A stretch of DNA of 64,000 nucleotides from Candidatus Omnitrophota bacterium (GCA_014729775.1 WJJJ01000022.1:13313-77312); one strand, 5' to 3'; shown: positions 487 through 49,165, numbered from the stretch's first letter. Translations and numbers: made by a program. Notes: generated from the letters alone by a model not told the origin.

Positions 487-2478
487 TCACGCTGTCTGTT
501 TTTCCTGCTGTGCCTGTGCAATAATCGTCTGACCAATCCGGTCCGGCACCACGTCGTAATGAGAGAAATGCATGGTGTAGGCACCCCGGCCGCCGGTCAC
601 CGATCGTAAGTCGGAGGCATATTTAAACATTTCCGCCAGCGGAACGAAGGCTTTCACTACTTCGTTTTTCCCGCGCATCTCCATCCCCTGAACCCTGCCT
701 CTGCGTGAACTGATATCGCCGGTTACCTGGCCCATGACCTCTTCCGGCACCGCGATCTCTACTTCCATCACCGGCTCGAGCAGCACACTGCGTCCCTGCT
801 CGAGCGCCTTTCTCAATGCCATTGAACCGCAAATCTGAAACGCCATATCCGAAGAATCCACCGGGTGATACGACCCGTCATAGAGCGTTACTTTGATGTC
901 GGCAACGTGGTATCCGGCCAAAATGCCCTGCTCCATGGCTTTGCGAATCCCCTTTTCCACCGACGGAATGAAATTCCGCGGGATCGCACCCCCGACGATC
1001 TGATTCACGAATTCAAAATCCTTGCCTCTTTCAAGCGGTTCCACTTTAATGTACACTTCGGCGAACTGTCCCCGCCCTCCGGTTTGCTTTTTATACCTAT
1101 GCTGAACGTCCGCGGGCTTCGCGATCGTTTCCCGGTAGGGAACTTTCGGCGTGCCCAAATCGACGTCCGCGCCGTATTTTCGTTTCATCCGTTCGATAAT
1201 CACGTGCAAATGGAGCTCACCCATCCCGGAAACGATCAATTCATGGGTCTGGCTGTCGCGGGAAATTTTACAGGTCGGATCTTCCAGCGCCAGCCGGGCC
1301 AGGGCGGTGGAGATCTTTTCTTCGTCCTGCCGGGTTTTCGGTTTCACCGACGCACTGTAGGCCGGAGGAGGAAACTGTAGACCGGGAAACCGCACCTGGA
1401 ACGATTTTTCGCATAAACTATCGCCGGTCACCGCCTCCTTGAGTTTCGCCACCGCGCCGATTTCTCCGGCCGAAATTCCGTCCTGGGCCACCTGCTGTTT
1501 TCCCTGCAGTATAGAGATCTGTCCTATTTTTTCTTTCGTGTGCTGATTCACGTTCATCACATCCGTATTGGAAGTGATCGAGCCGGAATGCACCCGAAAA
1601 ATACTCACTTTGCCCACAAACGGATCAATAAATGTCTTAATGATCTGTGCGGTAAAGGGACCGTCGGCTTTCGGCTCCACCCGTACTTCCTCTCCCTCCT
1701 TTTCCGCCGCGCGGGGACGCCCCTGCGCAACCGAAGGCATAAATTCCTCTATGTATTCCAGCAAGGTATCGATGCCTTTTTCCTCCACCGGCACCCCGCC
1801 GAGAATCGGAAAAAACTGCCGGTTCGCCACCGCAGCCTGCAGTGCGGGCAGCAGCTGTTCCTGCGCGATCGTTCCCGACTCAAGATACTTCTCGATCAGA
1901 GAATCATCGCTCTCCGCTACGGTTTCCATAATCGGATTATAATACTGGGGATCCTTTGTTTTGAGGACGCTTTTCGCTTCGCCGCCGGCAAACTGCACGC
2001 ACGGGACCGCCGCTTTGGAAAATGATTTTTTTATATCCTCGGCAGTTTCTTCAAAACTGGTATTCTCTTTGTCTAATTTCGTCACGAAAAATATACAGGG
2101 AAGATCAAGCCGCTGACAAAAATTCCAGGCCCGTTCGGTACCGACTTCCACCCCGTTCGCCGCATCAACCGCGATCACCGCGAAATCGACCGCACGAATG
2201 CCCGCAGCCAGCTCACCGAGGAAATCAAGATAGCCGGGGGTATCGATAAACTGGAGAAAGAGTCCGTTATGTTCAGCGTGCAGAAGAGACAGGTTAATGG
2301 AACTTCTTCTGTCCTTTTCATCCTCTTCATGGTCGCTGACCGTGGTTCCTTCTTCCACGCGTCCCAACCGTTTCGTCGCCCCGCAGGCATGAAGCAGCGC
2401 TTCGCTGAGAGCCGTTTTCCCGGATTGCGCGTGCCCGCAGAACAGAAATACCCTTTTCTTGGAGAGATCAGTCCTCAT
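487..2478 (-). CDS. Elongation factor G family paralog (divergent EF-G-like translational GTPase)
   Basis: 663 aa with EF-G domain order. G1 motif is GHAQSGKT, G3 is DTPGYLDF, G4 is TKLD (N->T), and the EF-G-like C-terminus is ...YTMHFSHYDVVP. Motifs are clearly diverged from canonical [20 protein letters not shown]. Confidence 0.85.
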   Translation of the reverse strand: MRTDLSKKRVFLFCGHAQSGKTALSEALLHACGATKRLGRVEEGTTVSDHEEDEKDRRSSINLSLLHAEHNGLFLQFIDTPGYLDFLGELAAGIRAVDFAVIAVDAANGVEVGTERAWNFCQRLDLPCIFFVTKLDKENTSFEETAEDIKKSFSKAAVPCVQFAGGEAKSVLKTKDPQYYNPIMETVAESDDSLIEKYLESGTIAQEQLLPALQAAVANRQFFPILGGVPVEEKGIDTLLEYIEEFMPSVAQGRPRAAEKEGEEVRVEPKADGPFTAQIIKTFIDPFVGKVSIFRVHSGSITSNTDVMNVNQHTKEKIGQISILQGKQQVAQDGISAGEIGAVAKLKEAVTGDSLCEKSFQVRFPGLQFPPPAYSASVKPKTRQDEEKISTALARLALEDPTCKISRDSQTHELIVSGMGELHLHVIIERMKRKYGADVDLGTPKVPYRETIAKPADVQHRYKKQTGGRGQFAEVYIKVEPLERGKDFEFVNQIVGGAIPRNFIPSVEKGIRKAMEQGILAGYHVADIKVTLYDGSYHPVDSSDMAFQICGSMALRKALEQGRSVLLEPVMEVEIAVPEEVMGQVTGDISSRRGRVQGMEMRGKNEVVKAFVPLAEMFKYASDLRSVTGGRGAYTMHFSHYDVVPDRIGQTIIAQAQQEKQTA

Positions 2479-2798
2479 ATAATGCCTCCTCCCATTTATG
2501 GTGATTTCGGATGTTCTTGAGAATTGGGACGCGAGAAAGTGAATGACACACGGTACAGCTCTCCACGATCTTTGAATTGAAGAGGAACAACGACGCAGAC
2601 TCCACTCCGCGATACTCAGCGGGGAGCGGAAAAGCGCCTACGTTTCCCTGAAACAGTTCTGCGCGAGCCGAGCAGGTGGACCGCAGCCTCGGCTGAAACG
2701 AATAAAAATCATTATAGACGAAAAACATTCGGCCGTCAATGGAAGGAGGCCGCTTTTTGAGTTTCTTAACGCTCTGTTCACCAGTATGTTAGAAAAAA

Positions 2799-3845
2799 TC
2801 AGCACAGAAACATCGCGTCCCCGAAACTATAGAAACGGAAATTATTCCGCAGGGCGTAGGAGTAACTTTCCCGGATTATTGCGGGACTGCAGAACGCAGA
2901 CACGAGAATGAGATTGGTAGACCGGGACGTATGAAAATTGGTGATCAGCCCGTCCACGATCTTAAACCGGTACCCGGGCACGATATAATAATCGGTTTCG
3001 CCGCTGTAAGCCACCACCTGCGCGCGTCCCTGCGCGTCTATTCCCGCACAGCTTTCCAGCATTCTCACACAGGTCGTCCCTACCGCGATCACCCTTCTTT
3101 TTTCCTGCTTCGCCGTATTGATCCTCGCCGCCGCGTCAGCGGACACCTCGATCCATTCGGATTCCATGGGATGGGCGCGGATATCTTCTGTTTTCACGGG
3201 ACGGAATGTCGCCACTCCGCAATGGAGGGTGATCGGCACGGTTTCCACCCCGCGGCGGACGAGCGCCTCCCGCAAAGAAGGCGTAAAATGGAGTCCGGCC
3301 GTGGGCGCGGCCACCGCCCCCGCACGACGCGCGTACACTGTCTGGTATTCGGACGGATCGGCAACCGGCTCCCGGATATAGGGCGGAAGAGGCACTTCCC
3401 CGTGCCGTTCGGCGTACCCCAGCACTTCGGCCGAAGAAAACCGGAGCACCCGTTTGCCGGAATCAGTCACTTCTTTCACCTCGGCGGAGAATGCGTCATG
3501 AGGGAAAGAAATCCGCGCTCCTTCGCGCATTTTTTTGCCCGGTTTCACTAATGCCTCCCATTCCCCCGGCGCGCGGCACCGCACCAGAAGCACCTCCACC
3601 GATGCACCCCGGGCACTACGCCCGTGCAGCCGGGCTCTGAAGACTCTGGTATCATTGAGAACCAGCAGATCTCCTTCTCCGAGGAACCGGGGCAGATCGC
3701 GAAACCGAACGCTTTCCTTTACGCCCTCGGCGCGGCTGACCACCAGCAGGCGGCTGGAATCCCGCGGCGCAGCCGGCCGCTGAGCGATATTTCTTTGCGG
3801 AACCTCGAATTCATACCGGGAAATATGGAATATTTCTTCGTTCAT
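2799..3845 (-). CDS. queA: S-adenosylmethionine:tRNA ribosyltransferase-isomerase
   Basis: 348 aa with QueA hallmarks (LPPYI, TAGLHFT, VGTTxxR). Confidence 0.9.
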   Translation of the reverse strand: MNEEIFHISRYEFEVPQRNIAQRPAAPRDSSRLLVVSRAEGVKESVRFRDLPRFLGEGDLLVLNDTRVFRARLHGRSARGASVEVLLVRCRAPGEWEALVKPGKKMREGARISFPHDAFSAEVKEVTDSGKRVLRFSSAEVLGYAERHGEVPLPPYIREPVADPSEYQTVYARRAGAVAAPTAGLHFTPSLREALVRRGVETVPITLHCGVATFRPVKTEDIRAHPMESEWIEVSADAAARINTAKQEKRRVIAVGTTCVRMLESCAGIDAQGRAQVVAYSGETDYYIVPGYRFKIVDGLITNFHTSRSTNLILVSAFCSPAIIRESYSYALRNNFRFYSFGDAMFLC

Positions 3846-3937
3846 GGAGTGTTTATTCTACCAGACTGGTACCGATTGAAAAGCATTTTTCTCGCGCTTT
3901 CTTCCCGCACGGAGAGAATTGACTTTTGGGATGAATT

Positions 3938-5101
3938 ATGATAAGAATAGCTGATATGGACACCATAAAAAAACTTCAGGAAGAAACGGAAAAACTCCGG
4001 TCGCAGTTTTACATATTTTATGAGCTTACCAAGGCCATGCGCTCCACACTGCGATTGGACGAAATCGTCTACATCATCCTCACCGGTCTGACCGCACGCC
4101 AGGGACTGGCGTTTAACCGGGCGATTCTGTTCCTTGTGGACGATACCAACCAGACCATTCAGGGATACATGGGGATCGGGCCGGTTGACGGACAGGAAGC
4201 GAATCAAATCTGGAAAAGCATTGAACACCAAAAGATGGACCTGCGCAGTCTGACCTTCGCCTACCACTGCCTCCGGGAAGGAAAAAAAACCCGGTTCAGC
4301 GAGTATGTAGAATCGATGTCCTTTCCGCTCTCTCCGGCAAGCGGTATCATTTACTCCGCACTGTTCGACAAGGGACCTGTATGTTTCTCCGCAGACCATG
4401 ATCTGCGCTACCGGGAAGATCCCCTGGTGAAACATCTTAAATTAAAGGATTTCCTGACCTCCTCGCTGTGGATCAAAGACGAACCGCGGGGACTGATTCT
4501 TGTGGACAATTACATCACCAAAAAACCTATCTCTGAAGATGACACCCGTATCTTCAACATGTTCGTGGAACAGGCCCAGGGCGCGATCGAAAATTCCAAA
4601 GTCTACGAAGACACGCTCCTGAGAGCCCATACCGATTCTCTCACCGGTCTCTGGAATCACGGGTATTTTCAATACGCACTGGACGAGGAAATGACGAAAG
4701 CGAAACGCGCGAAGACGCCGCTCTCGATCATGATGATCGATATGGATAATTTTAAGCGTTACAATGACGTGCAGGGTCATATCCAGGGAGACAAAGCCCT
4801 CAAACGGGTAAGCGCGATACTCAAAGACAACTGCCGGAAAGTGGATACCCTGTGCCGTTACGGCGGAGAAGAATTCAGCCTGATCCTGCCGGCGACTTCT
4901 CTCCAGGAAGCGTATCTGCTGGCAGAACGGATCAGAACTTCGGTGGCACACTCGGATGTGCTGGGAAGCAAATTCACGATCAGTATCGGTATCGCCGCGC
5001 TGGAAGATTTCTCCCTGGAAAAAGAGACGTTTATCCGCAGAGCCGACACCGCTCTGTACCGCGCCAAGCGGGAAGGGAAAAATCAGGTAGTGCCGGCCTG
5101 A
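3938..5101 (+). CDS. GAF-domain diguanylate cyclase (GGDEF)
   Basis: C-terminal GGDEF domain with RYGGEEF motif preceded by a GAF-like sensory region. It is the only convincing plus-strand gene in the window. Confidence 0.85.
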   Translation: MIRIADMDTIKKLQEETEKLRSQFYIFYELTKAMRSTLRLDEIVYIILTGLTARQGLAFNRAILFLVDDTNQTIQGYMGIGPVDGQEANQIWKSIEHQKMDLRSLTFAYHCLREGKKTRFSEYVESMSFPLSPASGIIYSALFDKGPVCFSADHDLRYREDPLVKHLKLKDFLTSSLWIKDEPRGLILVDNYITKKPISEDDTRIFNMFVEQAQGAIENSKVYEDTLLRAHTDSLTGLWNHGYFQYALDEEMTKAKRAKTPLSIMMIDMDNFKRYNDVQGHIQGDKALKRVSAILKDNCRKVDTLCRYGGEEFSLILPATSLQEAYLLAERIRTSVAHSDVLGSKFTISIGIAALEDFSLEKETFIRRADTALYRAKREGKNQVVPA

Positions 5102-5253
5102 CCCTCCCGTTCAAGAAATGACGACTTCCTCTCTCTTTTGCAGCCTCTCGCTGTGTCAGCATACCCGGATATCAGGCCGTCAAATAATGAGCAGGAAAAC
5201 CGCAAAGAGCAGACGTTTCTGATCCCGGGAAACTCTGTTTCAGGGATGTTTCG

Positions 5254-8200
5254 TTATTGCGCGGCGGAAGCGGCTTCTTCCTGGTCCTGATGGGCGAACT
5301 TGACCGAAACGAGCTTTGACACGCCTTTTTCTTCCATGGTGACTCCGTACAGCACATCGGCGTTGCTCATGGTCTTTTTATTATGGGTGATCAACAGGAA
5401 CTGGGAAACCTGAGAGAATTCCCTCAAAAGGTGATTGAAGCGGTCCACGTTCGCCTCATCCAGCGGCGCGTCAATTTCGTCGAGCACGCACAGCGGTGAC
5501 GGACGGACGCGAAAGATCGCGAACACGAGAGAGATCGCGGTAAGTGCCTTCTCTCCTCCGGAAAGCAAGGACACATTCTGAAGTTTTTTCCCCGGGGGCT
5601 GGACTTCTATTTCCACTCCCGATTCGAGCACGTTCTCCTTATCCAGCAGAATCAACTGGGCGCGTCCTCCGTTAAAAAGGAACCGGAAGTTCCTTTTAAA
5701 CTCATGCTGAATCTTCTCGAACGTTTCCAGAAAAAGTTCTTTGGAGGTACGGTTGATTTTCTGAATCGCTTTTTTCAGGTTTTCTTTGGAAGATATCAGA
5801 TCCGCTTTCTGCGTATCCAGGAATTCCTCCCGCTTTTTTAATTCTTCGAATTCTTCAATCGCGAACAAATTCGTTTCCCCGAGCGAATTTTTCCGTTTCT
5901 TCAGTTTATCCCGCGCCGCGCTCAACTCCTCGACCGTTTCCCGGACATCCTCCGCAGGCAGCGGCGTAAACTCCAGTTGATACACCTGCTGAAGATAATC
6001 TTTGACTTTTTCTTTCTCGTATTCCAGTCCCTGGATATCCAACTTTTTATTATAGAGAAACGTCTGCGCTTTCTGAACCTGCTCTTCAAGATCACGAATG
6101 CGTCCGTTTTGAACCCCGATGCGTTTCTCACATTCGTGAAACTCTTCCTCCAGACGCTGTTTGTGCTCCTCGGCGGCACGGGCCCGTTCCTGTCCCTGCG
6201 CGATGCCGGACTGGAGCGTTTCTATTTCCTCCCGGAGCTGACCGGCCTTATCTTCGTTGGTCTTTCGCTCCCGCTCGATCTCGGCCAGCGTTCCGGCCAC
6301 GGCGCTTTTCTCCTCCTCGAACAGGATAATGCGGGATTGAAGATCCTCTCGCTCTTTAAACAGAGACTGATTCTGCTCTTCGCGCTTGGCCTGTTCAATC
6401 TCAAGCGCGTTCATCTCTTCTCCGTTCCGCGTGAGTGTTTCCTGATACTGCTTGATCTGCTCCTGCGCGGCGTACACCGACTGCTCGAACGTCTGGGTCT
6501 TCTCCTCAAGAGTCTTCTGAGTGGTTTCAAGCGCTTCGATTTCACTCAGGACCGTCTCCATCTCGCTCTCCACCACCTGAGATTCCTCCTGCAGACGGGT
6601 AAGATCCCGGCCAAATCCTTCACGTTCCTGGAGGCGCTCCTGACACTGTTTTTCTTCTTCCGCTAATCGTTGTTCACAGTGAGAGATTTCTTCCTGCAGG
6701 CCCTGGATCTCGGCCTCGGTATGTGCAATCGATGCCGACAGGGACGCGATACGCTCGCGGGTCTGCTGTATTTTCTGCTCAAGCTGCGCTTCATCGAAGG
6801 AAACGACTTTGGCGTCCAGCGAGGCCCGGTACACTCCGCCTTCTTTTTCAATTACCGCTTCTTTCAAAGACAGAATCAGCTTATTGATCTGTTTCGGTTC
6901 CTGGTCGAATAACACCGTCACTTTTCGGGAAGAAGAGAACGAATCATACTTGGTCCTCAAGTCACGCAAGAATTCATAGGTCGATTTCAATTCCACCAGC
7001 TCTTTATCTAATTCAATCACGGTATTCTTCATTTCGTCTTTTTTGCGCGCACTTTCGCGTTCCTTGGCGGCCAGCGCCGCCTTCTTCTCTTTGCGTTCCC
7101 GCACGCGGTTTTCCAGCCCGGCCACCTCCTCCTGTACCCGCTCATACTGCTGACGGGTATCTTTCACCAGATCCTCCAGCCGGGTTTTATCCAGAAGAAG
7201 CCGCTGTTTACGTTTCCCCAATGAGGTCAGATTCGTCTGTATTTGAATAAGGGTATTGCGGGAATTCACCCGTTCCGTCTCCAGCTCAAACACCTTGGTC
7301 TTCTCCGCTTTTAACGCGGCCTGCACTTCTCTGGTATTCTGCGACAACTCCTGTTTTTTCCGGGCCAAAGACTCCATCGCTTCTTTGATCCTGGAAACCC
7401 GCTGATCAAAAGAATCGAGCTCCTGCTGTACCTGCGCGATCCGCTGTTCCTGGATCCGCAACCGTTCGCTGAAACTCGCACGGTTCGCATCAATCGTTTG
7501 GTTTCTTTTTTCAAGTTCCTGAATGCGCTGTTCGGAAACCCTGATGTGCGAGGTAGAATTCTCAATCTGCGCAGCAAGGGAGATCATTTCGGCGTTCGCT
7601 TGCTCCAGTTTTTTCCGCGTTTCCGAAAGCTGACCGTCAAGCTTCTCTTTTTCGCGGCTCGTCTCCCGGAGTTCGGCTTCTTTCTCGGTTTCTTGCTGTT
7701 TCATCCGCTGCAGCTCGTCCAATAAGGCATTCATCTGCTCTGAAAAACCGTGACACTGCAGAGAGGCAATCTTCTTTTCAGTTTCAACTAATGCCGCTTC
7801 GACCTCTTTGTACTTGCGTGCCTTTTCAACCTGCCGCTCTAAATACCGTATCTGCCGCCGCACTTCGGAAAGGATGTCTTCCAGCCGAAGAAGATTATCT
7901 TCGGTTTCCTTCAGCCGTTTGAGCGTTTCTTTTTTCCGGTCCTTATATTTGACGATCCCGCTCGCTTCATCGAAAATCAGACGCTTTTCCTCGGGTTTAT
8001 ACCCTAAAAATATCTCTATCCGGCCCTGTTCAATGAACGAATAGGTGGACTCACCGATACCGGTACCCATAAAAAGCTCCTGTACGTCTCTGAGCCGTAC
8101 GGGATTTTTGTTGATAAAATAATGGCTCTCCCCCGACCGATACAGCCGGCGGGCGATCGATACCTCTTTATAATCAATCGGCAGATAGCCGTCCTCGTTG

Positions 8201-8454: not shown

Positions 8455-8526
8455 AACTGCCGCAGTGTTTTCGCTTCAGAAGTCATTATAGCAGGATTTA
8501 CCCCGGGGCGCCAGATGAAACCTGTG

Positions 8527-9732: not shown

Positions 9733-9749
9733 CGTGTTCCTTTCGGTAG

Positions 9750-10541: not shown

Positions 10542-10563
10542 TCCGTACTCCTTTCGCCTGCGT

Positions 10564-11448: not shown

Positions 11449-11462
11449 GGCTCACATCCTTT

Positions 11463-36007: not shown

Positions 36008-36062
36008 ATTCTTCACCGTCAATCTCTTTTTTCGCCTTTTCTCTGACCGAAGGGAACTTCGT

Positions 36063-36788: not shown

Positions 36789-36823
36789 CAAAAAAAAAGG
36801 CCGCTGCGACACACGCAGCGGCC
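36789..36823 (-). terminator. Rho-independent terminator of fusA
   Basis: Minus-strand transcript reads GGCCGCUGCG-ugugu-CGCAGCGGCC followed by U9, 21 bp after the fusA stop. Confidence 0.7.
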
Positions 36824-36843
36824 AGGTTTATTTCCTCTGTGGT

Positions 36844-38940: not shown

Positions 38941-39008
38941 GAGTATCAATCCTCCTTAGATATTCAACGGGTCTTAAAGATGTTATTGTAATAAAAAAAG
39001 AAGAGAAA

Positions 39009-40277: not shown

Positions 40278-40523
40278 AAAAAGGAAAGTTATTATATCAG
40301 ATTCTGGTGCGGTGTCCAGCGGCAGAATTGCCGATTCTTGATCATGCGCTCTCTGGCGCCATGCGCCGCAATGCCGGCGCCCTGATGAAGAACAGCGACC
40401 AAGTGGGCGATATTGAGAATTCGGGCGATCTAAAAATAAAGAGCCTGAAACGCAATATTGGGGATAAAGAGAGAACCGCCCCCTTTTTTCGTCCCCTTTT
40501 TCAACTTGTATCTTGGCGGGCGA

Positions 40524-43500
40524 TTATCGATTAGCGGGTTCCCCGTCGTCCTCGCACGTTCCTTCCCGCTCGCACGGACGAACGGTCGCGTGACCGGCCA
40601 GCCGAAGAACGACATCATCGACGATGGCATAGATACAGGGAAGCACGACCAATGTGAGAAAGGTGGCACACACAATCCCCCACACGATTGTAAGCGCCAT
40701 CGGTTTTAAAAAAGGATCACCGCCGCCGATCCCGTACGCGGTCGGCGTCAGACCGAACGCGGTGGTAATGGTGGTCAACAGTACGGGGCGCAGACGAAGC
40801 CGGCCGGCTTCAATGATCGAATCACGCCGGTCAAACCCCTGCCGGCGCAGGTTGTTGATGAATTCGACCAATACGATCGAATCATTGACGACTATGCCCG
40901 TCAGTCCCACGATCCCCATCATCATAAAAAAACTCAACGTATATCCGTGAAAAAAGAACGCCCATACCACCCCGATTAATCCGAAGGGGATAGCCAGCAT
41001 CACCATCACCGGCTGGACCAGAGAATTAAAATTTGCCGCAAGGATAAGAAAAATAAGAAACCCGGCCAGGATAAACGCCTGGATAAAACTTCTCAGGGAA
41101 CGCACGTTTTCCTCCTGCTCCCCCGCGTATTCGATTCGGTATCCGGGATACTGCACGGGCATCTCGGAGAATTTTTCCTGGAGCTTGCGGTTGGCCTCGA
41201 AAGAGGTGATCGTTTCCGTATCTACTCCGGCCCGGACGGTAATGACCCGTTTGCCGTCTTTGTGGTTAATCCTGGCCAGCGCCACGTCTTCCTCGAGACG
41301 GGCCACCCGCGGAAGAGGAATCAGGTCGCCCTGCCGGTTCGGAATCAGGATGTGTGCGAATCCGGCTCTGGTATCGCGGTATTCGAACGGAAACCGCACC
41401 CTCACGTCAATTTCTTCCTCGGCCTTCACCGGCCGAATGGACGTAGCCACACCGCCCTTGTAGGCGGTACGGATCGAAGAAGCGACGTCACGTACGGTAA
41501 GGAACGCCCGGGCGGCCCGGTTCTTGTCCACTACGATCTTCACCTCTCCCCGGCCCAGTTCATAATCCGTCGCGATATCATGCACCCCTTCCAGAGACTG
41601 AAGATAATCTTCCACGTTTTTGGCGATTTCCTCCAGCATGGAGAATTCTTCGCCGATGATCTGCACCGCGACCGGCTTGCCCACAGGAGGCCCGGCTTGG
41701 GGTTTTTCAAAATACACTTCTTCAAAACCTTCGATCGCTTCCACCTTTGGCCGCAGCGCTTCAATGATTTCGTTCACGTCCCGTTCCCGTTCCTGATGCG
41801 GGGTCAGGTAAACCGTCACCTGCGCGATATGACTGCCTGATTTACCGTAGGGATCAAACCCCCAGGTCTCACCCAACGACCCTACCTGAGTAGTATAGGC
41901 GTCGACCTCATGTTCCGGGAGCTTCCCCACCAAAGCTTCGACCTTTTCCACCATTTCATTAGTACGGTAGAGATTGCTCCCCACCGGCATCTCGGCCCGA
42001 ATATAGAATTCTTCGATCCCTTCTTCCGACCCGAACAGCACGAAAGGCATCCGGGTCATCAGCCATATCGTGGCGCCCAGCAGGGCGAGAAACACCATCA
42101 ACGCCGTATAGCGCCGACGCAGAACCCGCCGCATCCGCCTGCTGTACCAGTCCCGGAGCCGGTTGATCCAGTGCAGTTCTTTGGAAGTTCCTTCGGAGGG
42201 AGGCATCCGCACGAAATCGGCAAAATGCGAGGGCAGAATCACAAACGCTTCGAACAGGGAACATATAAGCGCGATAATGATGACCAGCGGAATCCCCCAG
42301 ATGAATTTCCCCAGCATTCCTTCCATAAACATCAGCGGTCCGAAGGCGGCGATCGTCGTCACGATAGTGGCGGTAACCGGCTTGGCAACTTCGTTGGTGC
42401 CCGCGACCGCGGCCTCGGGCGGAGACAGCCCCCTTTCCAGATGCCGCGAACAGTTCTCGGCGACGATAATGCCGTCATCGACGAGCATTCCCAGTACGAT
42501 TATCAGTCCGAACATGGTGATCAGATTTACGCTCAGCCCCATAATGCCCATAATGGAAATGGTCGCGGCAAACGCGATGGGAAGGCTCAGCGCGGTAAGG
42601 AGCGCGATGCGGTAGTTCAGGAATACCATTAACACGCCACAGACCAGAAGAATCCCCACGATTCCGTTATTCTGCAGGACACCGAGCCGGCGTTTAATAT
42701 AGTAGGCAATATCGTTGATGTAGGAAACTTTCAGGCGTTCGTCATTCTTCCCGGTGTAATTCCCCACCCGCTCCTTTACCTCCTCGACGATCTTCACCGC
42801 GTCGCCGGTGGCGCGTTTGATCACCGTGAGATTCACCGAACGGGATCCATAACTCTTATTGATCACGTCTTCGTCTTCGAAGGTAAACCGGACGCCGGCG
42901 ACATCCCGAATCCTGAGCCAGTTCCCCGCTTCGTTGGCGCGAATTACGACGTCAGCGACCTCCTCGGCGTCATAGAATTCACCGGTGGTACGGATACTGT
43001 ATTCTTCTTTTCCTCTGATCGTTCCTCCGGGAATAGTCACGTTCCGCCGCGCCAGCGCTTCCATCACCTCTTCCATACTCACGTGTTTATCCCGCAGGAC
43101 CTCCGGATCGACTTCAACCCATACCTCCTGATCGCGCCAGCCCAGCCGGGATATGCTCGAAACTCCGGGAATGTCTTCAAGGATATCTTCAAGGCGCTCC
43201 GCGTGACCCTGGAGTTCATTTTCGCTGAGCGCACCGCTTAAGGCGACCTGGATGATGGGAATTTCGCCTGAGGTAATCTCAGTCACTATCGGCTCTTCGG
43301 CGTCCCCCGGCAGATCAGTCACCCGGTCGACCGCTTGTTTGATCTCATCGACCACTTTGTCCTTGTCTTTGACGTCCTGGGCGATATCCATCCGGACCGT
43401 GGAAAAATTGTCTCTGGACGTGGAAATCATCTCTTCGATCCCGTCGACACCCTTGAGTTCTTTTTCCAAAGGGATCGTGACCAGTTTTTCGACCTCTTTC

Positions 43501-43673
43501 GGCGGCGCGCCCGGATATGCCGTCTGCACCAGCACCACATCATAGGAAACTTCGGGGAACGCCTCCCGGCGGATCTGGTAGATAAACAGGGTATACACGC
43601 CGGCGATCAGCACAAACAGCGATATCAAATTCACCAACAGCGAATGTTTTACCGAAAATTCAGAAATCTTCAT
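40524..43673 (-). CDS. RND efflux transporter permease (HAE1/AcrB family)
   Basis: About 1050 aa with 12 TM helices and large periplasmic porter/docking domains. Start set at MKISEFSVKHSLLVN. Confidence 0.9.
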   Translation of the reverse strand: MKISEFSVKHSLLVNLISLFVLIAGVYTLFIYQIRREAFPEVSYDVVLVQTAYPGAPPKEVEKLVTIPLEKELKGVDGIEEMISTSRDNFSTVRMDIAQDVKDKDKVVDEIKQAVDRVTDLPGDAEEPIVTEITSGEIPIIQVALSGALSENELQGHAERLEDILEDIPGVSSISRLGWRDQEVWVEVDPEVLRDKHVSMEEVMEALARRNVTIPGGTIRGKEEYSIRTTGEFYDAEEVADVVIRANEAGNWLRIRDVAGVRFTFEDEDVINKSYGSRSVNLTVIKRATGDAVKIVEEVKERVGNYTGKNDERLKVSYINDIAYYIKRRLGVLQNNGIVGILLVCGVLMVFLNYRIALLTALSLPIAFAATISIMGIMGLSVNLITMFGLIIVLGMLVDDGIIVAENCSRHLERGLSPPEAAVAGTNEVAKPVTATIVTTIAAFGPLMFMEGMLGKFIWGIPLVIIIALICSLFEAFVILPSHFADFVRMPPSEGTSKELHWINRLRDWYSRRMRRVLRRRYTALMVFLALLGATIWLMTRMPFVLFGSEEGIEEFYIRAEMPVGSNLYRTNEMVEKVEALVGKLPEHEVDAYTTQVGSLGETWGFDPYGKSGSHIAQVTVYLTPHQERERDVNEIIEALRPKVEAIEGFEEVYFEKPQAGPPVGKPVAVQIIGEEFSMLEEIAKNVEDYLQSLEGVHDIATDYELGRGEVKIVVDKNRAARAFLTVRDVASSIRTAYKGGVATSIRPVKAEEEIDVRVRFPFEYRDTRAGFAHILIPNRQGDLIPLPRVARLEEDVALARINHKDGKRVITVRAGVDTETITSFEANRKLQEKFSEMPVQYPGYRIEYAGEQEENVRSLRSFIQAFILAGFLIFLILAANFNSLVQPVMVMLAIPFGLIGVVWAFFFHGYTLSFFMMMGIVGLTGIVVNDSIVLVEFINNLRRQGFDRRDSIIEAGRLRLRPVLLTTITTAFGLTPTAYGIGGGDPFLKPMALTIVWGIVCATFLTLVVLPCIYAIVDDVVLRLAGHATVRPCEREGTCEDDGEPANR

Positions 43674-45192
43674 ATAGTTCCCGTTGTGTACGCGCATCCC
43701 AATAGCGGGATAACAGCGCGTTTTTGGCCCGGCCCAGGTCGATCCGGCTCAGCCGGTAGGCGTACCACGCCCGGACCTGCTCAAGCCGCGCGTTGAGCAC
43801 GTCCTCCTGATAGCGGATTATCCGGTCACTGCTGGAGAGCCCGTCGCGGAACCGTTTCTGTTCCGCTTTCAGTTTTTCCGTTTGCAATTCCACCAGCCGC
43901 CGCGCCAGCTTCACCCGTTCCGCGTGCGCGTTGACCTGCGCCGCCAGCGTGTGCAGTTCACGGAAAATCTCCCGCTCCACCCGTTTTACGAAAAGAATGT
44001 GTTTTTGTTTCAGCGCTTCCGCCTCCGCGTATTCAGCCTCCGCTTTGGTGTTTTCCAGGGGGAACCGGATCGTAACCCCGAAAAACACCGATGAGTTATG
44101 CTCGTCACGCACCCCTTCCCAGGCCTCCCCGAAGCGGTCGCTGAGTCCGTTTTTGGCGTATGTCGCTTCAAGATCAATCTGCGGCCACAGCGAATTTTTT
44201 TTCATCGCCAGATAAATATTCTGCGAATCCAACGCGGTCCTCGCCCGCTGATAATCCCGGCGCCGAGAAACCGCCTCACGCAACTCCTCCTCCAGCGACA
44301 CCGTCTCCGGTCCGACGCGCAGTTCGTCCTGCGCGGAAACTCTCCGCTGAAAATCATCTTCATTTAATAAAAACAACAATTGGTTCTTCGCGGTTTCCCG
44401 TTCCAGGCGCGCGATGATCGCTTCTGTTTCCCTCGCCTTGACGTTCGCTTGGTGGGCAAACACTTCCGAGGGAATCGCCGTGCCCAATGCCTGTTTCTGC
44501 TCGTAGGTCCGTTGGAGCGCCCGCGCGTCGGCCAGCAATTCTTCCCGTACTTTCAGTTCTTCTTCCTGCAGAGCGAGGGTCCAGTAGGCTTCCTGCGCCT
44601 CGGCCAGAACCTGTTCAATTTCATCCAGCGACAGCCACCGGGCGCCCTCTACCGCAAGCGCGGCCCGGCGAACACCGTACCTGTCCAGAATACCGAAGAA
44701 ATTTTTCCCGATCGGCTGCACCAGACTGACCGCGACCTGCCCCTCATGGGCGGGATTCGTCGTGGAAAACGCGGAATCAGTCCAGTCCCGCGCATGCTGT
44801 CCTTCCACCGAAAGAGTGGTCCCCGTAGGCAGTGTTTTCTCCAACGAGGCCGAATACAGATTGGTGAGTTTCCTTGTCCCCAGAATGATACTGGCCGGTT
44901 TGGTCTGATCATCGGTATACCCGGCATGAAGCGCGAAATAGGTATCGAACAAAGACCGCTCCTTCGGCAGTTCCGTGCGTCCGGCGGCGTATTCATACAA
45001 AGCGATTTGCACATCAAGCGAATTCCTCAACACCAAACGGCTGATTTCCTCCAAGGAATATTTTTCCGCCCTCGTCCCCGAAAACGACTTCGAATCGGCG
45101 GCGGATACGTCCACTCCGGCGCATACCGGCACCGCCAGCATACCCCACAGGACCGCCTTTAAAAAAAGAGTGACTCTTTTACGCATTTTCAC
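43660..45192 (-). CDS. TolC-family outer membrane efflux protein
   Basis: 510 aa with signal peptide and tandem OEP repeats containing coiled-coil segments. Confidence 0.8.
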   Translation of the reverse strand: MKMRKRVTLFLKAVLWGMLAVPVCAGVDVSAADSKSFSGTRAEKYSLEEISRLVLRNSLDVQIALYEYAAGRTELPKERSLFDTYFALHAGYTDDQTKPASIILGTRKLTNLYSASLEKTLPTGTTLSVEGQHARDWTDSAFSTTNPAHEGQVAVSLVQPIGKNFFGILDRYGVRRAALAVEGARWLSLDEIEQVLAEAQEAYWTLALQEEELKVREELLADARALQRTYEQKQALGTAIPSEVFAHQANVKARETEAIIARLERETAKNQLLFLLNEDDFQRRVSAQDELRVGPETVSLEEELREAVSRRRDYQRARTALDSQNIYLAMKKNSLWPQIDLEATYAKNGLSDRFGEAWEGVRDEHNSSVFFGVTIRFPLENTKAEAEYAEAEALKQKHILFVKRVEREIFRELHTLAAQVNAHAERVKLARRLVELQTEKLKAEQKRFRDGLSSSDRIIRYQEDVLNARLEQVRAWYAYRLSRIDLGRAKNALLSRYWDARTQRELYEDF

Positions 45193-45616
45193 GGCCGGTC
45201 ATGTTTTTTAATATTTTCCTGAGGATACGCAAATACTCTTCCTGCTCGGCCCGGCTCAAACAGTCTAAGATTGTTTCCCACCTCTGCTGGATCGTCTTAC
45301 GGAACCGCTCGATGAATTCGGTGCCTTTACGGCTCAGCACCACATACACCACGCGCCGGTCCTGCTGATCTCTTTCCCGCCGCAGATACCCTTTCCGCGT
45401 AAGGCGGTCGACCACTCCCGATACCGTCGGCGCGGAAACCTGAAAATTTTCAGCGATATCGGTAAGTTTCGGCCGGTCGCTTTCCGAAATATACATCAGG
45501 GTGACAATCTGCCGGTTGGTAAGCTCCTCTATTTCAAAAAAGTTCTGGCGGATACTGACCACCAGCTTCGGGATCAACAGAGAAACTTCCCGGGCGATTT
45601 TACGCGCGTGCGTCAT
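45179..45616 (-). CDS. MarR-family transcriptional regulator
   Basis: Winged-HTH MarR pattern (LTNRQIVTLMYI...LTDIAENFQVSAPTVSGVVDRLTRKGYLRRERDQQDRR). Start set at the ATG at 45616. Confidence 0.85.
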   Translation of the reverse strand: MTHARKIAREVSLLIPKLVVSIRQNFFEIEELTNRQIVTLMYISESDRPKLTDIAENFQVSAPTVSGVVDRLTRKGYLRRERDQQDRRVVYVVLSRKGTEFIERFRKTIQQRWETILDCLSRAEQEEYLRILRKILKNMTGRENA

Positions 45617-45641
45617 ATACACACCCCCTACAAATTAATAT

Positions 45642-45656
45642 GGCTAATCTTTAGCC
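45642..45656. promoter_or_regulatory. Candidate MarR operator: inverted repeat GGCTAA-TCT-TTAGCC, nested in TTAATAT...ATATTAA
   Basis: Perfect 6-bp arms with a 3-nt spacer, 26-40 bp upstream of the MarR start and embedded in AT-rich promoter-like sequence. Confidence 0.3.
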
Positions 45657-45709
45657 TAGCTAAATATTAACATAAGAAAACTCCTTCGTCAAGGCCCCGG
45701 CGCCTCTTT

Positions 45710-48700
45710 CTATTCCTTTTTTTCCTGTTTTTTCTCTTCTTCGATGATTTTCGCGGCAAGTTCGGAAGGAACCGGCTCATAGCGGCAGAAATGCATGGAA
45801 AACGTGGCCCGCCCGCTGCTCAGCGAACGGAAGGTCTGGGAATAGCCGAACATCTCGCCCAGCGGCGCCTCGGCTAAAATAAGTTTCTGCTTGCCCTTTT
45901 CTTCGATATTCAAAATTTTCCCGCGCCGGGAACAGATATTCCCCACGAGATTACTCACGTATTCTTCCGGCGCCATGACCTCCAGGGACATATACGGCTC
46001 CAGAAGAACCGGCTTCCCCTTCATGAACGCTTCCTTAAAACAGCCGATCGCGGCCATCTGAAACGCCAGATCGGAAGAATCAACCTCGTGATAGGACCCG
46101 TCCAGAAGCGTGACGTTGATATCCACTACCGGATACCCGGCGTACACCCCGCGCTTCATGATCGTACGCACCCCTTTCTCCACGGACGGGATATATCCTT
46201 GCGGAATGGCCCCTCCTTTTATTTTATTGTCGAAAGAGAAATCCTGTCCCCGTTCCGCCGGAGCAATACTCATGATCACATGGCCGTACTGGCCGTGTCC
46301 GCCGGTCTGCTTGACGTGCTTATATTCTCCTTCCACCTCTTCGGTGAGCGTTTCCCGGTAGGCCACTTTGGGCGGACTGACTTCGGCGTTCACCTTAAAT
46401 TCCTCTTTCAGCCGTTCCACGATTATTTCCAGATGCAATTCTCCCATTCCGGAGAGAAGGATCTCTTTCGTTTCTTTGTTGGTTTCCACGGAAAAGGTGG
46501 GGTCCTCTTCCACCAATTTCATGATTGCCTTGTTCAATTTATCCTGGTCCTGACGGGATTTCGGTTTAATACTAATCGACATCACCGGCTCCGGAAATTC
46601 CATCGTTTCCAGCAGCAGCGGACGTTCGCCGGCGCACAGCGTATCGCCGGTCACCGTTTGAGAAAACCCGATCGCCGCGGCGATATCACCGGCGTACACC
46701 CGTTTCCGGTTTTCCTTCTGATTGGCGTGCAGCTGAACAATTCTGCCCACCCGTTCCTTTCTCCCTTTATTCACGTTCATCACGTACGTCCCCGACTCGA
46801 TATATCCCGAATATACTCTGAAATACACCAGTTTCCCCACATGCGGATCCGACTGAACCTTAAAGGCGAACCCGGCAAAAGGCTCCTCCAGCGACGGAGA
46901 GACGGTAATGCTCTTCTCTTCGTCGGAAGGGTCCGTTCCCAGCACCGGAGGCAGGTCAACCGGTGCCGGCAAAAACAGATTCACCGCGTCCAGAAGCTGC
47001 TGCACGCCTTTGTTTTTTAACGCCGAACCACACAGCACCGGCACCAGCTTATTGACCACGGTCCCGCTGCGGATCGCGCCACGCAGTTCATCCTCGCTTA
47101 ACGAGTTTTCATTTTCCAAATATTTCTCCATGAGCTTTTCGTCGGTCGCGGCCGCGCGTTCCGCGAGCAGATGACGATACTCCTGTGCTTTCTCTTTATA
47201 TTCCTCCGGGATTTCAGCCTTCTTGACCTTTTTCCCGTCGGATCCGTCCTCAAAGATACAGGCCTGCATTGAAATCAAATCGATGATCCCGTGGAACTCA
47301 CTCTCGGCGCCGATGGGTATCTGCAGAGGAACGATCGCGATGCTGAATTTTGTTTCGATATCCTTCAACACCCCGTAAAAATTCGCGCCCAGCCGGTCCA
47401 TCTTATTGATGAACGCGATCTTAGGCACGTGATATTTATTTGATTGATGCCACACGGTTTCCGACTGGGCCTCTACCCCGCCCACGGCGCAAAACACCAT
47501 CACCGCGCCGTCAAGGACCCGCAGCGATCGTTCAACCTCAGCGGTGAAATCTACGTGGCCAGGCGTATCAATAATATTGATCCGTACGTCATCCCAAAAG
47601 CAGGTGGTCGCCGCCGAAGTAATCGTAATCCCCCGTTCCTGCTCCTGTTTCATCCAGTCCATTTGCGCCTGTCCGTCGTGCACCTCGCCGATCTTATGCG
47701 ATTTTCCCGTATAATACAACACCCGTTCGGTCAAGGTCGTCTTCCCGGCGTCGATATGTGCCATGATCCCGATATTCCGGACCTTGTGCAGATTCTTGGC
47801 GACTTCATCCAGCTCCTTTTTCAGTTCCGGATCGATCTCTTTTCGCTGATCCGCCCCTTCGCTCATGGCCTTTGCCGCAGGCGCCTTGCTCTCCTCCTCA
47901 GATTCATCCGGGACTTCTGTTCCCCCTTCTTCTTTTTCCGGCTCATCAGATCCCTTGCGGACTTTCCCTTCGGCTCCTTCCCGGGATTCTTCCCCTTCCG
48001 AAGACGAGGGAGCCTTTTCCGCGGCACCCTGCGCTTCCTGTTCTTCTTCTGCATCCGTCCCGCCGTCCTCTTCCGGCACGGAAGCCCGGGCCTCATTTGG
48101 TATTGCCTCAGCTTGAGCTTTCCCCGAAGCTCCTGCCGGTGCGGGCTCCGCTGGGACCTCGGCATCCTCCGCTCCGGCTGAATCGGCTTTTTCCTCTTCC
48201 GCGGCGTCGACACTGCCGGAATCCGCACCCGGTTCTTCATCGGCCTTTTCTTGCCGGACAGCGTCCGCCGCAGGCGCTTTGTCTTCTGCGTCGTCGCCGG
48301 AAGCCTCATTCCCCGCAGCTACGGTCTCGGTTTCCGGCGGTTTTTCGCCCGCCGCAGAATCACCGCCGCCATCGCCCTCGGCGCTCTCCACGGTTTCTCT
48401 CCCGGCGTCTGCTCCTTCCTCTCCCAACAGCCGCGCTAAATGCTCCTTCTGCCTCTTATACTGTCGCATCTGCTCGTCGCGTTCCAGGTACAGCTTCTGC
48501 TTGAGCTCGTGATCTTTTTCTAATTTTTCATATTCCTGCCGCAGGCTCTCGTACTGCTCTTTTATTTTTTCGAATTCCGCTTTGGATACCCATTCACTCT
48601 GCTCCAGCTTCCGCTGAAGCTGATTTGATTTCATTCGCAGCGCCTTGATCTCGCTGGTATTGGATTCGAGCGTGCTTTTAATCTCCCGAAGTTCATCGTC

Positions 48701-49165
48701 ACGCTCTTTCACCTCCTCGTCCAGCTGCGCGATACGCTTTTCGGCGTCGTCCAAAGACCGCTGAAGATTGACCTTTTTGGAAAATTCCTTTTCCAGCTCC
48801 TTTTCTTTTTTCAGAAATTTTTCTTTTAATTGCCGATTCTCTTCGACCATTTTTTCCATCTTTTCATGCTCGTGCGCATCCCATTTTTTCTGCCGGTCAA
48901 GCTCCTCCGCGAGATCCTTCTTTTTTTCGCGCAGCTGCTCCTGTTCCTTCTGCGCGGAGGAAAGCTTCCTTTTCATCTCCTCGTTCTTTTGCTTCAGCTC
49001 CACCCCTTCTTCCTTGAAAAACTCGGCGCGGCGGCGCTGCTCCTCAACCAACGCCTTATAATTCTCCCTCTGCTCCCGTTTCTTGCGTTCTTCAGGACTG
49101 TAGAACAGGTAATATACCAGTCCAAGCGCACCGACCATTAAAATGATGAATATCAGTTGCATCAC
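45710..49165 (-). CDS. Membrane-anchored coiled-coil / acidic-linker / EF-G fusion protein (EF-G paralog with a ~450-aa N-terminal extension)
   Basis: Single 1151-aa ORF. Residues 1-22 form a TM helix ([22 protein letters not shown]). Residues ~25-250 are K/E-rich heptad coiled coil. Residues ~250-450 are D/E/A/G-rich low complexity. A complete EF-G follows ([63 protein letters not shown]...DTPGHVDF...NKMD... through domain V), about 85% identical to fusA in the G domain. Confidence 0.8.

Follow-up and report, generated by a model that had tools for sequence, protein, structure and literature searches.

The EF-G paralog analyzed here very probably belongs to EFG II (EF-G2), an old and fast-evolving paralog found beside canonical EF-G in many bacterial phyla, and represents an Omnitrophota-specific branch of it. 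The substitutions in its nucleotide-binding motifs are the EFG II/EF-G2 signature (Margus 2011) and are no new remodelling of the protein. What is newly seen for this paralog is an invariant, near-consensus sigma-70 promoter and a conserved pairing with a YchF-like gene.

The analyzed window, i.e., the whole 64,000-nucleotide stretch of DNA, originates from a Candidatus Omnitrophota MAG. The three EF-G-family genes that an earlier note on this DNA had listed all exist, and all are on the minus strand, which that note had not given (Table 1). Two of them encode canonical EFG I proteins, in agreement with the earlier claim of a divergent paralog beside canonical EF-G. The mechanically predicted fusA ORF begins at a TTG at 38949, but the likely start is the ATG at 38940; its product contains the motifs AHIDAGKT, RGITIT, DTPGH, and NKMD, and the gene is located outside any str operon. 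The EF-G part of the second protein is 66% identical to fusA and is preceded by an N-terminal extension of ~455 aa with a TM helix, a coiled coil, and an acidic low-complexity region. The paralog itself starts with an ATG preceded by a ribosome-binding site, GGGAGGAGG. Five domains are recognized (G with a shortened G', II, III, IV, and V), with the Pfam families GTP_EFTU, EF-G_D2, EFG_III, EFG_IV, and EFG_C matched at E-values from 5e-12 (EF-G_D2) to 1.5e-48 (EFG_IV). Its AF2 model (pLDDT 86.9) superimposes on ribosome-bound EF-G, 1WDT, 9K0Z, and 8DMF with TM scores of 0.83–0.91. Every EF-G or EF-G2 structure found by Foldseek in the PDB scored 0.8–0.9, and the rank tracked conformation (ribosome-bound vs. 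free) and not subfamily; thus, Foldseek does not discriminate between subfamilies.

Table 1. Positions in the window of the EF-G-family genes, the motifs of the EFG II-type paralog, and its flanking features
Feature	Positions	Strand	Remarks
YchF-like partner gene, 5' part	3..455	minus	GTG at 455; runs off window at 1
EFG II/EF-G2-type EF-G paralog	487..2478	minus	663 aa; 663-codon ORF intact
G5 region, G-G-V-P (vs. C-G-S-A), residues 227–230	1789..1800	minus	alignment
G4, TKLD, residues 133–136	2071..2082	minus	translation and alignment
G3/switch II, DTPGY, residues 79–83	2230..2244	minus	translation and alignment
Switch I/G2, RRSSI (vs. RGITI), residues 57–61	2296..2310	minus	alignment
G1/P-loop, GHAQSGKT, residues 15–22	2413..2436	minus	read from translation and alignment
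Sigma-70-type promoter, TTGACG-17-TATAAT	2711..2739	minus	11/12 match; ~225 nt upstream of the paralog's ATG
queA (S-adenosylmethionine:tRNA ribosyltransferase-isomerase)	2799..3845	minus	upstream neighbor, separate transcription unit
fusA-like canonical EFG I	36844..38940	minus	698 aa from ATG; TIGR00484 1087 bits
Second canonical EFG I, fusion	45710..49165	minus	1151 aa; EF-G at residues ~455–1151, TIGR00484 1013 bits

Assignment to EFG II

The paralog has a five-domain fold in common with canonical EF-G, represented by that of T. thermophilus (1DAR) and by both window copies. Their domains IV and V are 52–57% and 41–55% identical, respectively, and conservation extends to the domain IV tip and the acidic G' helix, but their G domains are only 28–31% identical and all type I diagnostic residues differ. 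More divergent domains I–III and conserved domains IV–V are the published pattern across EFG II. When aligned with both window EF-Gs and a PDB EF-G, the paralog showed no offset in the motif assignment, and the alignment confirmed how G1, G3, and G4 had been read. In the P-loop, Ala and Gln take the places of the EFG I residues Ile and Asp (AHIDAGKT), and Gly15 and Leu24 are EFG II-type residues. In switch I, Arg57 is retained and the Mg-coordinating Thr is replaced by Ser60, an EFG II hallmark, while Tyr83 (TAT, 2230..2232) occupies the position of the catalytic His of EFG I. The changes in switch I, G5, and G', where ~30–35 residues of the beta-hairpin are absent, had not been included in the earlier note.

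The diagnostic positions were those of Margus, Remm and Tenson (Margus 2011), numbered as in 1WDT. At the six type I positions (Gly16, Leu25, Ser61, Thr291, Gly333, and Lys/Arg352), the paralog has G, L, S, T, G, and K, a complete match, and the same residues are found in 90–119 of 119 sequences of the Omnitrophota clade. The window fusA has A, L, T, V, A, and G at these positions, and both window EF-Gs have A16, T61, H84, A333, and G352. At the type II positions (D216, V250, L264, K471, K472, E513, and G603), the paralog has D, I, L, K, K, E, and G; all seven are counted as present, the conservative Val-to-Ile change at 250 being the sole deviation. Its RRSSI also agrees with the relaxed G2 consensus of EFG II, xxxSx (Margus 2011), and is accompanied by GHAQSGKT, DTPG, and TKLD with an invariant Asp. 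The G5 sequence of EFG II, gSAx, is replaced by G-V-P in the paralog and by G-[VIA]-A in the clade consensus. The G5 motif is also lacking in MsmEF-G2, an accepted member, and we treated G5 as a variable rather than a defining feature of EFG II. The paralog coexists with EFG I and is not located in a str operon, its neighbors being queA and the YchF-like gene; T. thermophilus EF-G-2 likewise lacks a str-operon context and coexists with EF-G1.

In neighbor-joining (NJ) trees with three EFG I sequences and without an outgroup, the only type of tree that was built, EFG I was split from the paralog and the remaining sequences in 100 of 100 bootstrap replicates, regardless of whether the full length, the G domain, or domains II–V were used, and in none of the replicates did the paralog's clade group with EFG I. 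With TIGR00484, the model for canonical EF-G (EFG I), the paralog scored 618.8 bits, under the cut-off of 659.4, and all four canonical motifs (AHxDAGKT, RGITI, DTPGH, and NKxD) are altered. It also scored under the cut-off of the EF-G2 equivalog model NF009377 of NCBIfam (595 vs. 890 bits). However, 1WDT, the archetype of EFG II, fails this model as well (533 bits); the model is therefore narrower than EFG II, and it was dropped as a membership criterion. Overall, the paralog scored higher against T. thermophilus EF-G1 than against T. thermophilus EF-G-2 (550 vs. 427 bits), because domains III–V are well conserved.

A mosaic gene, in which an EFG II-type G domain was recombined onto an EFG I body, was also considered. 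The best PDB match of the G domain is 1WDT (138 bits) and that of residues 178–653 is T. thermophilus EF-G1 (481 bits), and the identities to 1WDT and to the window fusA are 42 and 28% in the G domain but 26 and 34% in domain II. EFG II residues are, however, also present in domains II (T291, G333, and K352), IV (K471, K472, and E513), and V (G603); the tree of domains II–V separates EFG I from the paralog in all replicates, and the paralog never joins EFG I; and divergent domains I–III with conserved domains IV–V are what has been published for EFG II. Having examined per-domain identities, diagnostic residues, and partitioned trees, we rejected a mosaic origin, which we consider very improbable. 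It is extremely improbable that the protein is a ribosomal protection protein of the Tet(M)/Tet(O) type or another trGTPase (RF3, LepA, or BipA). The matches to those models are weak, sub-threshold, and due to domains in common: the score with tet_protect (NF012153) is 335.5 bits against a cut-off of 775, and those with the RF3, LepA, and BipA models are far under each cut-off. Moreover, domain IV of the protein is of the full EF-G form and includes the tip motifs of the translocase. The earlier comparison with spdEFG was also mistaken. Although spdEFG1 and spdEFG2 of Spirochaetes, Planctomycetes, and Deltaproteobacteria are likewise extra EF-G paralogs of PVC-related and neighboring phyla, the hallmark of spdEFG1, a three-residue KDG insertion in switch I, is absent from the paralog, in which the G1-to-G2 spacing is that of EFG I and EFG II residues occupy the diagnostic positions.

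Conservation of the nucleotide-binding site

More than 100 full-length orthologs with 60–66% identity were found. The His-to-Tyr change, for which the earlier note had suggested a check of conservation, is kept within a clade: of 120 Omnitrophota orthologs, 119 have Tyr at position 83. The Asn-to-Thr change in G4 turned out not to be a clade feature: Thr133 is private to the MAG of this paralog (1 of 120), and the orthologs have NKLD. Among 72 orthologs, the mean column identity is 74%; G15, A17, G20, K21, and T22 are invariant, as are S59, S60, D79, P81, G82, D136, and the domain IV tip residues, and Y83 is kept in at least 90%. Conservation also covers TGGRGQ and GSYHxVDSS, the motifs of the domain IV tip, and AESDDxLxEKYLE, the acidic helix of G'. 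These results show that the GTP-Mg-binding residues, namely GxxxxGKT in the P-loop, Ser in switch I, DxPG, and Asp in xKxD, are intact and that purifying selection acts on them. They also show that the canonical hydrolysis machinery is swapped clade-wide, with His replaced by Tyr, the P-loop Asp by Gln, and the two Ile of the "hydrophobic gate" by Ala and Ser. Judged by the Asp of xKxD, guanine specificity is retained. Use of a different nucleotide, as the earlier note had suggested, is unlikely, since this specificity Asp, D136, is invariant and, according to a figure legend, GTP is present in the 1WDT structure, which has TKLD as well.

The loss of several canonical catalytic residues and the N133T change unique to this MAG might be taken as signs of a decaying duplicate, a pseudogene, or an assembly artefact. 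We give this reading almost no credence: the ORF of 663 codons is intact and has a ribosome-binding site, nucleotide-binding and domain IV residues are invariant among the more than 100 full-length orthologs, the promoter and the operon partner are conserved, and an identical protein (P0001) is found in NCBI. For practical purposes, it is refuted by the intact ORF, the orthologs, and the conserved promoter and partner.

The wider family is similar. Among the 150 best representatives of clusters at 50% identity, the His position is occupied by Tyr in 83 and by Phe in 29 and almost never by His, and 149 of the 150 have non-canonical G motifs. The His-to-Tyr swap, singled out earlier as worth checking, is thus not unusual but the commonest state in EFG II/EF-G2. 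The earlier note had named as a refutation that the protein falls inside a well-characterized EF-G2 clade with the same substitutions and known function, and this largely applies.

Promoter and YchF-like partner gene

Both hexamers of the promoter are invariant in seven of seven aligned orthologous upstream regions. A conserved regulatory RNA leader was considered and dropped: the leaders of these seven regions are ~60–225 nt long and have no sequence in common, so that the promoter alone is conserved. When the entire window was scanned with Rfam at gathering thresholds, nothing matched, and thus no known riboswitch or leader precedes the paralog. The consensus promoter suggests that the paralog may be expressed constitutively, and as a near-consensus element it would argue against the stress-only expression of the Bacteroides and mycobacterial EF-G2. 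The upstream position of queA is limited to the closest relatives, and the gene forms a transcription unit of its own; we regarded this linkage as local synteny and discarded it as a functional clue.

The gene that follows the paralog in the same orientation is real, as the earlier note had it, but its type is known: it encodes a YchF-GTPase_C/TGS protein. It begins 32 nt past the EFG II stop codon, and its part in the window corresponds to the N-terminal 151 aa of a ~229-aa protein. The Walker A/P-loop of the YchF-like protein (~230 aa) is degenerate, and a TGS/DUF933 domain is found at its C-terminus. A YchF-like gene is located downstream on the same strand in 34 of 35 species loci of the paralog's EFG II clade, and in one of them (L006) the two genes overlap by 4 nt. 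Our literature searches found no association of YchF with EF-G2 or fusA2 and nothing on EF-G paralogs of Omnitrophota.

Characterized EF-G2 proteins and proposed function

The EFG II archetype, T. thermophilus EF-G-2 (TTHA1498; PDB 1WDT/2DY1; GHAGSGKT, DAPGYGDF, and VTKLDK), is of the same type as the paralog in its P-loop (GHA-x-SGKT followed by Leu), DxPGY, and TKLD. The paralog's model superimposes on it with a TM score of 0.83, but the overall identity is only 39%, and the two proteins differ in switch I (His-Arg-Thr-Thr-Val vs. Arg-Arg-Ser-Ser-Ile), in G5 (A-S-G vs. G-V-P), and in the G' beta-hairpin, which is retained in T. thermophilus EF-G-2. GTP binding, GTP hydrolysis, and support of poly(Phe) synthesis were found for T. 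thermophilus EF-G-2 (Connell 2007, cited in PMC3150367). Its GTP hydrolysis and translocation were shown biochemically.

M. smegmatis EF-G2 (9K0Z/9K10; TM 0.83) and the paralog have in common the His-to-Tyr change, the Asn-to-Thr and Met-to-Leu changes in G4 (T-K-L-D; T148-K-L150-D in MsmEF-G2), and an unconserved G5. The P-loop of MsmEF-G2 is, however, G-P-S-G-G, in which the His is lost, and none of its switch-I residues is conserved, in contrast to His16 and Arg57 of the paralog; its domain IV loops are displaced and its C-terminal helix is shorter, while the domain IV motifs of the paralog are canonical. MsmEF-G2 (Tyr98) lacks ribosome-stimulated GTPase activity and traps the post-translocated ribosome during stress, and the H88Y mutation nearly abolishes the ribosome-dependent GTPase of M. 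smegmatis EF-G1. B. thetaiotaomicron EF-G2 (BT_2167; 7UVP/8DMF; TM 0.87), which is also of EFG II type and without the catalytic His, is described as lacking GTPase activity and having a role in slow translocation, and it is Cur-regulated and induced by carbon starvation. It has Ser at the His position, where the paralog has Tyr, and is 718 aa long with an insertion in domain IV, compared to 663 aa for the paralog; in contrast to its regulation by Cur and starvation, the paralog has a consensus sigma-70 promoter.

The activity of the paralog cannot be inferred from its EFG II membership or its motifs, because the T. thermophilus (active GTPase and translocase), M. smegmatis (inactive, traps ribosomes), and B. 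thetaiotaomicron (without GTPase, slow) proteins differ. The statement that loss of the His usually abolishes ribosome-stimulated hydrolysis agrees with the H88Y mutant of MsmEF-G1 and with MsmEF-G2 but not with T. thermophilus EF-G-2, which is active with the same Tyr and TKLD; a loss of activity is thus not readable from the motif. By its GHAxSGKT and DxPGY, the catalytic centre of the paralog appears nearer to that of the active T. thermophilus EF-G-2 than to that of the inactive MsmEF-G2, while its degenerate G5 seems to resemble that of MsmEF-G2. We propose that the paralog, in its GTP form, would occupy the factor site of the ribosome and place domain IV in the A site. It may serve as an alternative factor of the translocase type, and any GTP turnover by it would proceed without the mechanism involving the His and the sarcin-ricin loop. 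A strong promoter of its own would drive its transcription jointly with that of the P-loop-degenerate YchF-like protein, which, as gene order suggests, probably works with it on the ribosome.

Given that the H88Y mutant is nearly dead and MsmEF-G2 traps ribosomes, the earlier idea of a factor that binds rather than hydrolyzes, or is of hibernation type, is a live option, despite the hydrolysis by T. thermophilus EF-G-2. The paralog could accordingly be a GTPase-dead, MsmEF-G2-like factor that locks post-translocation or idle ribosomes and slows translation under energy limitation. We regard this as possible but rather unlikely. Besides the mycobacterial precedents, the Tyr, T-K-L-D, and degenerate G5 in common with MsmEF-G2 and the loss of the P-loop Asp and both gate Ile speak for it, but the active T. 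thermophilus protein, the P-loop His and switch-I Arg that MsmEF-G2 has lost, the intact domain IV tip motifs, and the constitutive expression suggested by the promoter speak against it. A hydrolysis-independent slow translocase similar to that of B. thetaiotaomicron, which would let an ultra-small, host-dependent cell short of energy keep translating at little expense of GTP, is in our view unlikely. It would be consistent with the description of the Bacteroides protein, with the preservation of all translocation-relevant domain IV motifs in the paralog, and with the description of Omnitrophota as metabolically reduced and host-dependent. The catalytic centre of the Bacteroides protein is, however, different (GSSGSGKT, YGYSV, DCPGS, and NQLD; PDB sequence), and with the Bacteroidetes EF-G2 model of NCBIfam (NF058620) the paralog scored 529 bits, far under the cut-off of 1000.

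For the motif finding as first posed, little changes: the motifs have been known as an EF-G2 signature from the time of the 1WDT structure and of the family analysis of 2011, and the mycobacterial protein is now described per residue. At the scale of metagenomes, however, the sample shows that an aromatic residue (Tyr or Phe) dominates and His is nearly absent at the catalytic position of EFG II, which sharpens the question of how T. thermophilus EF-G-2 hydrolyzes GTP without that His. The Omnitrophota branch evolves slowly and has lost neither the His of the P-loop nor the Arg of switch I nor any domain IV motif; it is therefore a good natural variant for separating active and inactive modes of EF-G2. 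The tight pairing of EFG II with the P-loop-degenerate YchF-like gene represents a testable functional link. More speculatively, and with considerable doubt, EF-G2 and the NTPase-degenerate YchF derivative may make up a dedicated ribosome module of two proteins, expressed constitutively, in a large Omnitrophota lineage that includes Ca. Velamenicoccus archaeovorus. If so, the module could be, e.g., a system for low-GTP-cost translocation or for ribosome holding, and it would operate alongside a canonical and a membrane-anchored EF-G in ultra-small, host-dependent cells that translate proteins of multiple thousands of residues.

The EF-G paralog and its subfamily

As claimed in the earlier note, three EF-G genes were present in the window. 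Alignment of the target protein (i.e., the EF-G-like product of the ORF at the window's left end) with the other two placed its motifs GHAQSGKT, DTPGYLDF and TKLD in register, so the non-canonical residues do not result from an offset. Alignment also revealed RRSSI in switch I, where RGITI is expected of canonical EF-G (EFG I), G-V-P in place of G-S-A in G5, and a G' beta-hairpin short by 30–35 residues. All five EF-G modules (i.e., GTP_EFTU, EF-G_D2, EFG_III, EFG_IV and EFG_C) were found with Pfam, and a database search returned an identical copy of the protein as an NCBI entry on a 93.5-kb contig. The AlphaFold model was that of a complete EF-G (pLDDT 86.9, pTM 0.78); its TM scores against ribosome-bound EF-G, the Thermus thermophilus EF-G-2 structure 1WDT, Mycobacterium smegmatis EF-G2 (MsmEF-G2) and Bacteroides EF-G2 were 0.83–0.91, and superposition of this predicted structure does not discriminate among EF-G and EF-G2 types.

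Features of the window discussed in the text
Feature	Position	Strand	Details
YchF-like gene, 5' part	3..455	minus	starts 32 nt past the target stop; runs off the window edge
Target EF-G paralog	487..2478	minus	663 aa; ATG with GGGAGGAGG just before it
Promoter TTGACG-17-TATAAT	2711..2739	minus	between queA and target
fusA	36844..38940	minus	mechanical ORF from TTG 38949; ATG 38940
Fusion EF-G	45710..49165	minus	1151 aa; EF-G is residues ~455–1151
Weak IS200-like Y1 transposase match	49228..49872	minus	214 aa; PF01797, E = 3e-8
Giant ORF	49947..63662	minus	4571 aa, single ORF

The best PDB match of the isolated G domain was T. thermophilus EF-G-2 (1WDT/2DY1), whose sequence contains GHAGSGKT, DAPGYGDF and VTKLDK. 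The EFG II (EF-G2) subfamily is characterized by six positions conserved differently from EFG I and seven conserved in EFG II only, with domains I–III divergent and domains IV–V conserved (Margus, Remm and Tenson, 2011; PMC3150367). The target matched at 13/13 of these positions, one conservative Val-to-Ile change being allowed: G16, L25, S61, T291, G333 and K352 of the former and D216, I250, L264, K471, K472, E513 and G603 of the latter (1WDT numbering). Both canonical copies of the window had A16, T61, H84, A333 and G352. In distance-based NJ trees with three EFG I sequences and 100 bootstraps, these three split from all others, including the target, in 100/100 replicates for full length, G domain and domains II–V alike, and the target clade was never joined with EFG I. 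A mosaic origin was considered because the top score of residues 178–653 was to T. thermophilus EF-G1 (481 bits). It was rejected on two results: EFG II-specific residues occur in domains II, IV and V, and the trees of the separate partitions give the same split. The target did not reach the NCBIfam "EF-G2" equivalog NF009377 (595 < 890), and, given that 1WDT itself scores only 533, this model does not span the whole subfamily. The target is thus very probably an Omnitrophota branch of EFG II, so that the placement in a known EF-G2 clade with the same substitutions, which the earlier note had set against its own reading, is largely what the diagnostic residues and trees point to.

Substitutions in the nucleotide-binding centre

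In the best 150 matches from an exhaustive HMMER search over 1.84 billion cluster representatives, the G motifs were non-canonical in 149. The position of the catalytic His was occupied by Tyr in 83, Phe in 29, Asp in 8, Leu in 6, Ala in 5, Ser in 3 and other residues in a few, and the Asn position of G4 by Asn (114), Thr (18) or Ser (13). The H-to-Y swap, regarded earlier as unusual, is therefore the commonest state. The 120 best database homologs were 60–66% identical to the target, belonged to Omnitrophota or Omnitrophica in every case where the source was named, and conserved GHAQSGKT-type P-loops, R[KR]SSI and D[TVA]PGY. Of the two substitutions whose conservation in a clade the earlier note proposed to check, Tyr is clade-wide (119/120 sequences, target counted), but G4 is NKLD nearly throughout, the Thr of TKLD being found only in the target's MAG.

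A 72-sequence ortholog alignment had a mean column identity of 74%. Invariant in it were K21 and T22 of the P-loop, S59 and S60 of switch I, D79, P81 and G82 of switch II, the guanine-specificity residue D136, the domain IV tip motifs K463-Q471 and G535-D544, and A188, E189, D192, Y198 and L199 of the acidic G' helix. This conservation reflects purifying selection on a nucleotide- and ribosome-binding protein, not decay of the gene. With the Asp of xKxD invariant, use of a different nucleotide, as also proposed earlier, is unlikely.

The target's substitutions are already documented for EF-G2 and are not new. In MsmEF-G2, Tyr98 replaces the catalytic His88 and points away from the gamma-phosphate, Thr148 and Leu150 replace Asn and Met of NKMD, and G5 is unconserved, while H88Y in mycobacterial EF-G1 nearly abolishes ribosome-dependent GTPase activity (2026 preprint, 10.64898/2026.05.25.727771). 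MsmEF-G2 itself has no ribosome-dependent GTPase activity; under stress, it traps ribosomes in the post-translocation state. According to papers citing Connell (2007), including PMC3150367, T. thermophilus EF-G-2 binds and hydrolyses GTP, intrinsically and on the ribosome, and supports poly(Phe) synthesis. Its structure 1WDT is drawn with GTP-Mg bound. The T. thermophilus protein shares both Tyr and TKLD with the target and is active nonetheless. Bacteroides EF-G2, which translocates slowly without GTPase activity, differs from the target in having Ser rather than Tyr, as well as GSSGSGKT, YGYSV and NQLD. The P-loop GHA-x-SGKT of the target, with its His kept, resembles that of T. thermophilus EF-G-2, whereas its switch-I Arg is kept as in EFG I (RGITI) and is His in the T. 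thermophilus protein; its degenerate G5 resembles that of MsmEF-G2. The P-loop Asp of trGTPases is Gln in the target and is also lost in the T. thermophilus and M. smegmatis proteins, and the two gate Ile are Ala and Ser, lost likewise in T. thermophilus (Ala, Thr). The GTPase centre is hence non-canonical, as proposed earlier; that it may not hydrolyse GTP is supported by MsmEF-G2 and H88Y, but the active T. thermophilus enzyme carries the same Tyr. Given that the three characterized EF-G2 proteins behave differently, membership in EFG II does not settle the activity of the target, and its assignment to any one of these behaviours would carry low confidence.

Canonical EF-G copies of the window

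Both fusA (1087 bits) and the fusion EF-G (1013 bits) passed the canonical EF-G equivalog TIGR00484; they share 66% identity, and G4 is NKMD in both. The N-terminus of the fusion EF-G consists of a hydrophobic helix, a K/E-rich coiled coil of ~200 aa and ~230 aa of acidic low-complexity sequence, followed by canonical EFG I. Among its best 120 homologs, 114 were 969–1181 aa long, 101 of these 114 had an N-terminal hydrophobic 19-mer, and the G1 motif started at a median residue of 347. The NCBI annotation of the copy in this MAG covers 718 aa only, from an internal start. Such an EF-G, conserved across Omnitrophota and apparently anchored in the membrane, looks less ordinary than the EF-G2 paralog.

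Neither canonical gene lies in a str operon context in the window. In the region 36063..45192 (minus strand), the neighbours of fusA are an M48 peptidase gene and an unannotated 224-aa ORF, and the stretch between the two canonical genes encodes an AcrB-type RND pump and an outer-membrane efflux protein. Because S12-S7-EF-G-EF-Tu operons are reported on Omnitrophota chromosomes, the genome may hold a fourth EF-G copy. The transposase-like ORF sits between the fusion EF-G and the giant ORF; a 2026 preprint reports EF-G/EF-Tu genes from parts of Omnitrophota chromosomes that are hypervariable or mobile. The giant ORF is in line with reports of very long proteins in Omnitrophota. Over 1..50000, GC skew stays negative (-0.05 to -0.19) and long ORFs lie almost without exception on the minus strand; past ~50 kb, within the giant ORF, the skew flattens.

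Promoter, YchF-like partner and proposed mode of action

Upstream of the target are queA, a divergently transcribed GGDEF gene and SMC, an order common only to the closest relatives. The SMC upstream of the ortholog in locus L004 (L004:1-2552; 1617 aa, with Intein_splicing and LAGLIDADG domains) is an intein-containing SMC. In alignment A3 of seven Omnitrophota upstream regions, both promoter hexamers (-35 TTGAC, -10 TATAAT) were invariant in 7/7, together with an A-tract upstream and a GTTA box. Outside these elements, the intergenic sequence could not be aligned across these loci, which share only 60–66% protein identity; the leader was 60–225 nt long and unconserved in sequence, and Rfam returned no match.

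Orthologs of the downstream gene encode ~219–235 aa with a C-terminal YchF-GTPase_C/TGS domain and align to residues ~175–368 only of solved YchF proteins. Walker A is degenerate at their N-terminus (G-x-x-d-x-x-x-GK followed by a variable residue), and no DxxG motif was apparent in their consensus. The typical protein is ~229 aa with an intact TGS/DUF933 C-terminus (e.g., L004:7025-7717, L005:7033-7722 and L006:7007-7696; more in L007-L080). In a scan with one genome per GTDB species, the gene was directly 3' of EF-G2 on the same strand in 34/35 xHA[QHY]xGKT-type loci with enough downstream sequence, including Ca. Velamenicoccus archaeovorus LiM, at gaps of 3–253 nt; the pair in L006 has a 4-nt overlap. 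It was 3' of none of ~40 other loci (i.e., SHSGxGKT Omnitrophota, Acidobacteriota, "Clostridia" bins and EFG I). A library search combining YchF with EF-G2/fusA2 yielded no paper that connects the two. A second Omnitrophota EF-G2-like type (P-loop SHSG[AS]GKT, switch I [RH]KISI, DTPGY, often SKLD; e.g., L031, L035 and L039-L062) is 46–50% identical to the target, and in none of its loci does the YchF-like gene follow. From gene order, the EF-G2 and YchF-like pair appears to be a clade-specific operon.

The target would be made from its own strong promoter along with the YchF-like partner. It is more likely than not that it acts as an alternative translocase-type factor, which would bind GTP and the ribosome and would not use the His-SRL (sarcin-ricin loop) catalytic mechanism.
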